DNA from: Escherichia coli
GTDB taxonomy: Bacteria; Pseudomonadota; Gammaproteobacteria; Enterobacterales; Enterobacteriaceae
Assembly: GCF_003334785.1 (NCBI RefSeq)
Contig: NZ_QOWV01000004.1
Length of the DNA stretch: 64,000 nucleotides
Direction: 5' to 3' (one strand)
The position numbers and the translations under genes are program-made. Below the pieces are notes generated by a model that saw nothing but the letters and a program-made list of their open reading frames with translations, had not been told where the DNA came from and made no database searches. Below are positions 41,405-42,039 of the stretch, one piece after another. The first letter of the stretch is position 1. Every line of letters begins with the position of its first letter.

Positions 41405-41662
41405 GAAACCCGCCGGAACGGTTTATTACGTACATCAGGTAAAACTGACCGATAAGCCGCTTTCTTTTGGGTATAGTGTCGTGGACAGTCATTCATCTTT
41501 CTGCCCCTCCAAAAGTAAAAACCCGCCGAAGCGGGTTTTTACGTAAAACAGGTGAAACTGACCGATAAGCCGCTTTCTTTTGGGTATAGTGTCGTGGACA
41601 GTCATTCATCTTTCTGCCCCTCCAAAAGCAAAAACCCGCCGAAGCGGGTTTTTACGTAAATC
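41405..41662 (-). repeat. Tandem repeats of about 113 bp downstream of rnpB, each reiterating the rnpB 3'-terminal segment plus its terminator hairpin (aaaacccgccgaagcgggttttt); distal copy degenerate
   Basis: Terminator copies at about 41517-41540 and 41629-41652 plus a degraded copy about 41405-41430; gtcgtggacagtcattcatct recurs at about 41480, 41592 and 41693. Confidence 0.85.
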
Positions 41663-42039
41663 AGGTGAAACTGACCGATAAGCCGGGTTCTGTCGTGGAC
41701 AGTCATTCATCTAGGCCAGCAATCGCTCACTGGCTCAAGCAGCCTACCCGGGTTCAGTACGGGCCGTACCTTATGAACCCCTATTTGGCCTTGCTCCGGG
41801 TGGAGTTTACCGTGCCACGGACTGTTACCAGCCGCGCGGTGCGCTCTTACCGCACCCTTTCACCCTTACCTGATCCCGCTTGCGCGGGCCATCGGCGGTT
41901 TGCTCTCTGTTGCACTGGTCGTGGGTTTCCCCCCCAGGCGTTACCTGGCACCCTGCCCTATGGAGCCCGGACTTTCCTCCCCTCCGCCCGTCTCCCCCGA
42001 AGAGGACGACGACGAAGCGGCGACTGTCTGGTCAGCTTC
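41663..42039 (-). ncRNA. rnpB: RNase P RNA (M1 RNA), 377 nt
   Basis: Minus-strand sequence begins GAAGCUGACCAGACAGUCGCCGCUUCGUCGUCGUCCUCUUCGGGGGAGACGGGCGGAGGGGAGGAAAGUCCGGGCUCCAUAGGGCAGGGUGCCAGGUAACGCC and ends ...CGGUCAGUUUCACCU, matching the M1 RNA I recall. Confidence 0.95.

Follow-up and report, generated by a model that had tools for sequence, protein, structure and literature searches.

Tandem reiteration of the rnpB 3' end and terminator downstream of the RNase P RNA gene in Escherichia coli and other Enterobacteriaceae

Why should the 3' end of the RNase P RNA gene, together with its transcription terminator, be reiterated in tandem directly behind the gene itself? The question is raised by a 64,000-nucleotide stretch of Escherichia coli DNA (contig NZ_QOWV01000004.1 of assembly GCF_003334785.1; hereinafter, the window), in which rnpB, the gene for M1 RNA, is followed by an array of 113-bp units. 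The rnpB RNA is essential and heavily transcribed, and both clean formation of its 3' end and insulation of the neighbouring genes matter to the cell. We consider it fairly probable, with the reservations discussed below, that the array is a recombination-driven series of fail-safe, two-directional intrinsic terminators behind a highly active stable-RNA gene. The repeats as such are already known and their identity is secure: Reed and Altman are said to have described, in 1983, a 113-bp sequence present in three and a half tandem copies behind rnpB of E. coli K-12, and the window array has the same locus, 113-bp period, sequence, terminators and open reading frames (ORFs). Full-text literature searches, with the 1983 and 1985 papers outside their reach, returned nothing on the rnpB repeats and no function for them; a 2024 paper on rnpA49 suppressors mentions amplification of rnpB but not the 113-bp repeats. 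What the present comparison adds to the K-12 description of 1983 is a wide, patchy distribution among Enterobacteriaceae, population counts for E. coli, the breakdown of the ORFs, with the ensuing rejection of the peptide idea, and the constraint on an insertion that sets the units apart from rnpB.

The Rfam scan places rnpB on the minus strand (318.6 bits, E = 1e-104, with the full model RF00010, positions 1-367, covered), and E. coli records of identical sequence carry the rnpB annotation here. The initial annotation did not state the strand; because rnpB lies on the minus strand, the strings quoted there are reverse complements of the RNA sense. Its central claim, tandem reiteration of the rnpB 3' end and terminator with a period of about 112-113 bp, is confirmed by Tandem Repeats Finder (period 113, 2.5 copies, 94% matches, no indels, score 504, positions 41406-41685), by the Rfam placement and by exact string matches. 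In particular, caggtgaaactgaccgataagccg is found at the true rnpB 3' end (41662-41685), at 41549-41572 and, with one mismatch, at 41436-41459; gtcgtggacagtcattcatct occurs exactly three times, within rnpB (41692-41712) and at 41591-41611 and 41478-41498; and aaaacccgccgaagcgggttttt occurs exactly twice (41631-41653 and 41518-41540). The spacing of both rnpB-derived blocks is exactly 113 bp.

The first copy (copy R; coordinates of all features are given in Table 1) is the end of rnpB itself, which reads, on the sense strand, AGATGAATGACTGTCCACGAC-AGAACCC-GGCTTATCGGTCAGTTTCACCT, followed by GATTTACGTA, terminator T1 and a linker ending in GGAGGGGCAGAA. The intact unit behind it, U1, does align to the rnpB 3' region, being identical to copy R at 97 of the 101 positions outside a 12-nt gap, and the internal 3'-domain segment that had been called diverged is actually exact (21/21). 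The true difference, which had been overlooked, lies between the two rnpB-derived blocks: U1 carries a 12-nt insertion, ACTATACCCAAA, between CCACGAC and AGAA, and a CC-to-AG change in the strand that forms P4 in M1 RNA; two other bases differ. With the insertion and this change, the units read AC(A/G)CTATACCCAAAAGAAAGCGGCTTA in place of the J2/4-P4 sequence of rnpB, and the J2/4 and P4 3' strand of class A RNase P RNA (ACAGAACCCGGCUUA) are not intact in them. In the window and in five other loci, model RF00010 is matched by the true rnpB gene only and not by the units. Because the J2/4 insertion and the two P4 3'-strand changes set them apart from rnpB, the units are best described as pseudo-3' ends.

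The core of the terminal unit, U2, has a single mismatch, in block B, and the same terminal unit ends the arrays of K-12 and other strains. Where two well-preserved copies and a degenerate one had been proposed, one of the preserved copies is thus rnpB's own 3' end with T1, and the extra copies downstream are one intact unit and one with a degenerate hairpin. Repeats are indeed present within the originally proposed extent, 41405-41740, but the array reaches further, to an old degenerate remnant that had been missed beyond an insertion of REP/BIME-type palindromic elements. This insertion contains sub-threshold matches to the REP-derived Rfam families naRNA4 (41349-41390) and ES036 (41303-41345), and it is missing in strains O157:H7 and CFT073, where its flanks are contiguous. 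The old remnant (local alignment score 39, compared with 16 +/- 2 and a maximum of 22 for shuffled sequences) adjoins the stop codon of yhaC; in CFT073, which has no intact extra units, it follows T1 directly, and in O157:H7 it likewise stands directly after a good terminator.

In both T1 and its counterpart in U1, T2, a G+C-rich hairpin stands directly before UUUUUGCUUUU, as is typical of intrinsic (Rho-independent) terminators. T1 folds with a free energy (dG) of -19.4 kcal/mol and a z-score of -4.81, a value as good being found in none of 200 shuffled sequences; T2, with the same hairpin sequence, reaches -19.4 (z -4.62) on the minus strand and -18.5 (z -6.57) on the plus strand, where UUUUU follows. 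Both T1 and T2 are highly stable in either orientation. The hairpin of U2 does not qualify as a terminator (dG -4.7, z +1.05, no T tract), and that of the old remnant is not significant by folding (z -0.10). Of the multiple termination points originally envisaged, those at T1 and T2 are therefore plausible and one at the third, decayed hairpin is not. A generic terminator scan flagged neither T1 nor T2, perhaps because the stem is prolonged by A/T pairs that reach into the T tract, and was replaced by folding and a purpose-made detector. Across distinct sequences, a hairpin with a T tract was detected in all 34 first copies, in 44 of the 48 internal units and in 19 of the 42 terminal units. 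The stems fall into many families that differ by paired changes (for example, CCCGC/GCGGG, CCCCGC/GCGGGG, CCTCAC/GTGAGG, CCCGTCAGT/ACTGGCGGG and CGCCCCGCAAGA/TTTTGCGGGGCG). Clearly, the terminators are maintained: in internal units, compensatory changes preserve the hairpins, whereas terminal units have often lost them. A study of natural terminators as reusable parts included T1 of rnpB in the set selected for measurement (PMC3643576).

Copy number varies greatly within E. coli. The window sequence finds its matches among E. coli chromosomes, with 100% identity in strain G6/7, and U1 is 100% identical over 113 bp to the units of MG1655 and other K-12 records, so that the architecture is that of K-12, as had been stated; the window strain has one unit fewer, the rnpB-yhaC spacer being 500 bp compared with 613 bp in MG1655. 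The variation among strains that the initial annotation reported is equally evident: motif mapping found no extra units in CFT073, one in O157:H7, two in the window, three in K-12 and four in E300082. In a set of 5,426 complete E. coli genomes, a 64-nt probe specific for the insertion-bearing core matched 8,284 places, which fell in 3,674 genomes (68%), with one to eight places per positive genome (median 2), all of them chromosomal. K-12 has no copy elsewhere in the genome because its three probe places are all accounted for at the rnpB locus. Unequal crossing-over would be expected to give just such a pattern, with near-identity among internal units of one array and the same decayed terminal unit in many strains. 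Tests of termination and of an RNA role could draw on natural strains, in which 0 to 4 or more units occur; on the practical side, the array is a hazard, since copy number is easily mis-assembled and multi-mapping reads may hide 3' ends or small RNAs. The E. coli Stbl4 genome, with seven matching places, proved to contain a scrambled assembly region and was not used: positions 4539474-4542620 of NZ_CP081009.1 are a patchwork of partial transposase genes, tRNA genes, RtT RNA and a fragment of a rnpB unit, probably mis-assembled repeats that inflate the unit count of that genome.

Outside E. coli, a scan of 100,044 species representatives for two rnpB 3' ends 98-128 bp apart matched, in addition to E. 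coli, Escherichia whittamii and Klebsiella pneumoniae (copy R and two units in each); the Klebsiella units have a period of about 116 and the same core, with an insertion one base shorter. A metagenome scan that allowed any 10-30-nt spacer between the two rnpB-derived blocks yielded 92 loci with periods of 85-128 bp. All arrays with an intact upstream part begin with a rnpB-type copy, every later copy is insertion-bearing and none is rnpB-type, and all spacers of the pattern-scan units fit (G/A)CT.T.C...AAAGAA(A/C)GC. Such scans fix parts of the core; sampling without that bias was based on GarK homologues with organism names, for which the contigs were fetched. By this route, copy R and three units were found in Salmonella enterica and in Citrobacter amalonaticus, and copy R and one unit in Klebsiella aerogenes and in Phytobacter massiliensis; the units are absent from the sampled genomes of C. 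freundii, C. rodentium, Enterobacter asburiae and Pseudescherichia vulneris. In one further lineage, two genomes hold five copies and a third, encoding an identical GarK protein, holds two, so that copy number is polymorphic outside E. coli too. Judged by sequence comparison, the unit appears to be older than Escherichia.

Two further peculiarities of these arrays are worth recording. Contigs that encode identical GarK (L088/L108 compared with L105-L107) differ not only in their arrays but in their rnpB 3' ends, CAGCTTCAAC and CAGTTTCGAC, respectively, which may reflect recombination at the locus or a chimeric metagenome contig. In arrays of the C. amalonaticus type, the linker after the terminator contains a secondary short tandem repeat, GTAGATGAT, reiterated two to three times (L025, 8553-8900; L124, 3309-3700), so that unit length varies between 108 and 128 bp inside a single array.

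The scenario that we favour, a fail-safe terminator array, would start from a duplication in the ancestry of the core Enterobacteriaceae. The duplicated segment would have begun some 50 nt upstream of the mature M1 3' end, taken in the AU-rich trailer and T1, and ended about 20 nt past the terminator. The duplicate would then have gained the 12-nt J2/4 insertion and the P4 3'-strand changes, because of which the copy would be unable to replace the real M1 3' end. Subsequent growth and shrinkage of the array via unequal homologous recombination would account for the near-identity of internal units, the decay of terminal ones and the range of 0 to 8 copies within one species. Each intact unit would act as a further strong intrinsic terminator, folding equally well on both strands and preceded by an AU-rich single-stranded stretch that resembles the trailer of the M1 precursor, which RNase E cleaves. 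We infer that polymerases escaping T1 of the heavily transcribed rnpB would be stopped before reaching the neighbouring genes, that convergent transcription would be kept from entering rnpB, and that read-through RNA would then be cleaved to short pieces. A parallel is offered by rrnB T1-T2, the tandem fail-safe terminators after a highly expressed stable-RNA operon: in both cases, several strong intrinsic terminators stand in series behind a very active promoter, but the extra terminators of rnpB reiterate the gene's own end, vary by strain and carry a conserved core that is not part of the terminator.

Several observations weigh against the fail-safe terminator array. The array is dispensable, being missing in 32% of the 5,426 complete E. 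coli genomes and in several species. In published MG1655 Term-seq tables (Adams et al. 2021, PMC7815308), the sole 3' end called at this locus is 3270216, the mature M1 end, and no 3' end is listed at the coordinates of T1-T3, with the caveat that filtering may have removed repeats. Another difficulty is that conservation extends beyond the terminator. Using as the neutral yardstick the four-fold degenerate sites of the adjacent garK, which are 44-55% (about 48%) identical between E. coli and other genera, we found that the unit-specific positions, that is, the 12-nt insertion and the two P4 changes, are identical between E. coli and five other genera in 59 of 70 comparisons (84%); for the same genera, pooled identity to E. 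coli is 64% in the AU-rich linker before the hairpin and 41% in the linker after the T tract. The pooled binomial probability is 4e-10, which overstates the significance because the comparisons share branches and are not independent; Salmonella alone gives 14/14 (5e-5). The P4-disabling G is present in 133 of the 134 pattern-scan units and the rnpB-type CCC in one, and Salmonella units keep CAGTTTCACC although Salmonella rnpB reads CAGCTTCACT. Gene conversion from rnpB does not explain this conservation because it could homogenise the rnpB-derived blocks but could not template the insertion. Thus, fail-safe termination alone leaves the conservation of the unit-specific bases unexplained.

It is conceivable, if rather doubtful, that the insertion and the P4-disabling change are under purifying selection and that the units give rise to a functional RNA from rnpB read-through. 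Such an RNA would be a mimic of the M1 3' strand in which the P1 and P2 strands are retained, P4 is lost and the 3' end is a terminator tail like that of a small RNA (sRNA). It might influence how M1 folds or how its 3' end is processed, or it might titrate either Hfq or the protein subunit of RNase P, and the RNase P RNA gene would then have a product comparable to RtT or the 3'ETS RNAs. More generally, we tentatively entertain as the strongest alternative that the units are selected as RNA, the read-through transcript being cut, in analogy to RtT RNA or the 3'ETS of leuZ, to pieces of about 113 nt with the M1 P1 and P2 3' strands and a disabled P4. Such fragments might base-pair with the 5' end of M1 as it is transcribed, or associate with RNase P protein or, via the A-rich insertion and U tail, with Hfq, and would thereby tune RNase P assembly or another target. 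The excess identity of unit-specific positions over the neutral level speaks for such a role, as do the CGCT and AAAGAA.GC blocks, which are invariant and not templated by rnpB (in an alignment of units from nine lineages, the invariant blocks are GACTG, CCAC, CGCT, AAAGAA, GCGG, TTA, CGGTCA, the stem core and the T tract), and the sRNA-like form of the unit, in which a terminator and its U tail stand behind a core. For five of six folded sequences, the prediction is the same two-stem fold, in which the rnpB-derived blocks pair as an outer stem A:B around an inner stem CGC:GCG; however, in the consensus structure of 52 units these stems show no covariation because the columns are invariant or ascertainment-biased, folding z-scores are not significant (-1.4 to +0.7, with -2.3 in one lineage), only the terminator being significant, and the common A-variant of E. 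coli, present in the window, disrupts the inner stem. Nor does any Rfam family match the units in five species, the matches in six loci being limited to rnpB and weak REP-related ones.

Published MG1655 data (PMC7815308) demonstrate that read-through RNA exists in vivo: in the Rho table, the 800-nt interval beyond the mature end has 11,200 reads and the one before it 30,653, and a Rho-dependent region is located at 3269111 (-), on the rnpB strand, in the interior of yhaC and antisense to it. The reads past the mature end and the Rho region in yhaC imply that some transcription crosses the whole array. The lack of unit 3' ends in the Term-seq list and of units in one third of E. coli genomes count against an RNA role as well; discrete unit-length RNAs are either not abundant or not mappable.

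The tyrT repeats and their RtT RNA would be the closest analogy for a role at the RNA level. The tyrT operon contains 178-bp tandem repeats that reiterate the 3' end of the gene and have historically been linked to a small basic ORF, and it yields a stable processed RNA, RtT. The likeness would lie in tandem repeats standing directly after a stable-RNA gene, each reiterating its 3' end; the two systems differ in that there is no similarity by sequence or model and that each rnpB unit carries an intrinsic terminator. The RtT covariance model RF00391 had no match at E <= 1 in the window region or at E <= 0.05 in five other loci; an annotation 'RtT sRNA, processed from tyrT transcript' was found in the Stbl4 region. 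We know of no stable product of the rnpB units. In 3'ETS-leuZ, an RNA by-product is released by RNase E from the 3' trailer of a stable-RNA precursor, and a trailer by-product of rnpB could, purely by analogy, have a regulatory role.

That slippage and unequal crossing-over gave rise to the array in a purely neutral manner, with no part of it selected, seems unlikely. Its dispensability, its highly variable copy number and the decay of terminal units would all fit, but the same insertion persists across genera in which neutral sites are nearly saturated, and the hairpins of internal units are retained through compensatory changes.

The idea that the rnpB repeats contain open reading frames reportedly dates to 1983. 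We regard as very improbable the corresponding reading, according to which the units would specify small, basic, 33-38-residue peptides, translated from read-through mRNA with GGAGG-ATG signals and ATGA coupling. The ORFs in the window do have a good Shine-Dalgarno motif and ATGA overlaps, and ATG is present in 88 of 93 distinct unit contexts; yet the ATG falls within rnpB-derived sequence, so that its presence is uninformative, and elsewhere it is replaced by AGG or GTG or is missing. After codon 9, a 1-nt indel changes the frame (...YTQKKAAYRS in E. coli and Salmonella, ...YTKRTRLIGQF in Klebsiella), some lineages stop after 7-9 codons, and the Shine-Dalgarno motif is missing or misplaced in Salmonella, C. 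amalonaticus and Phytobacter. Thus, start, ribosome-binding site and frame are not kept among relatives as they would be in a conserved small protein gene. A published list of translated small ORFs (2021 preprint supplement) has no entry here or under rnpB, which is weak evidence given that repeats are hard to map. Sequence comparison marks the repeated small ORFs as a sequence by-product and not as conserved genes.

Finally, the possibility that the units are leftover attachment-site (att) copies of mobile elements integrated at the rnpB 3' end can be all but dismissed: mobile elements do integrate into the 3' ends of tRNA and tmRNA genes, and the DNA after rnpB varies by strain and genus (yhaC, the tdc operon, PAAR/pyocin toxins, DUF1493, MscS and, in one Enterobacter record, phage genes), but the units abut head-to-tail, uninterrupted by island DNA, and none of the examined arrays has an integrase beside it. 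No genuine phage or plasmid with a unit or rnpB 3' fragment was found, the matches being chromosome pieces filed as such, and att duplication would not produce the insertion that the units carry.

One such match, an Enterobacter "plasmid", was set aside because it has a full rnpB with a different downstream region beside phage genes and no units. In this record, Enterobacter roggenkampii NZ_CP109732.1, filed as a 90.9-kb plasmid, garD-garL-garR are followed directly by the full rnpB, with no garK. After rnpB come a different, long-hairpin terminator, pentapeptide-repeat-like and glycosyltransferase-like sequence (our reading of an unannotated part) and then annotated phage genes (S24 peptidase, DinI, tail-fibre assembly); the record may represent chromosomal DNA in a phage-plasmid or a mis-assigned contig.

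Table 1. Features of rnpB and its 3' flank in the window
Feature	Position	Strand	Basis
rnpB (M1 RNA, RNase P RNA class A), 377 nt	42039..41663	minus	Rfam RF00010 RNaseP_bact_a
rnpB promoter-like site, GTGACA-17 nt-TATACT	42047..42075	minus	consensus scan, 10/12 matches; pattern match only
Copy R: own last ~50 nt of rnpB, AU-rich trailer, T1, linker; 101 nt	41612..41712	minus	alignment to U1
Terminator T1: hairpin between A tract and T tract	41631..41653	minus	folding
Unit U1: intact 113-bp repeat, pseudo-3' end of rnpB and T2	41499..41611	minus	Tandem Repeats Finder, exact anchors
Terminator T2	41518..41540	minus, folds on plus too	folding
Unit U2: terminal; rnpB-like core intact, hairpin decayed, T tract absent	~41400..41498	minus	string matching, folding
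REP/BIME-type palindromic elements between U2 and old remnant	41263..41395		sub-threshold Rfam hits
Old degenerate remnant: terminator-like segment, linker, AGATGAAT...ACG anchor	41198..41257	minus	local alignment
38-codon ORF, MNDCPRHYTQKK...	41493..41609	minus	ORF list; GGAGG 9 nt upstream, ATGA stop/start overlap with next ORF
Sister ORFs	41606-41710 and 41395-41496	minus	ORF list

In the window, rnpB is flanked by garK upstream and by the convergent yhaC downstream. A candidate promoter within the unit (TATACC in sense, TATAGT in antisense orientation) was rejected, having no usable -35 element, no conservation in other lineages and no report from the scan. The DNA that follows rnpB is variable among Enterobacteriaceae and includes the tdc operon, PAAR/pyocin-S-type toxins, a multihaem cytochrome, MscS, DUF1493, and pirin with a LysR regulator, so that the rnpB 3' flank looks like a hot spot of gene turnover. 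In E. coli E300082, an IS621 (IS110-family) transposase gene lies directly downstream of the five-copy array, at the usual place of yhaC (L008, 2026-2721). The yhaC gene itself (39975-41162) is frameshifted in strain WS0115A and represented by fragments only in CFT073; in the window, it contains an 18-bp tandem repeat (41071-41111, Tandem Repeats Finder score 54). In garK (42072-43298), the longest ORF has 408 codons, whereas RefSeq and all homologues start at the internal MKIVIAPDSYKE, which gives a protein of 381 residues.

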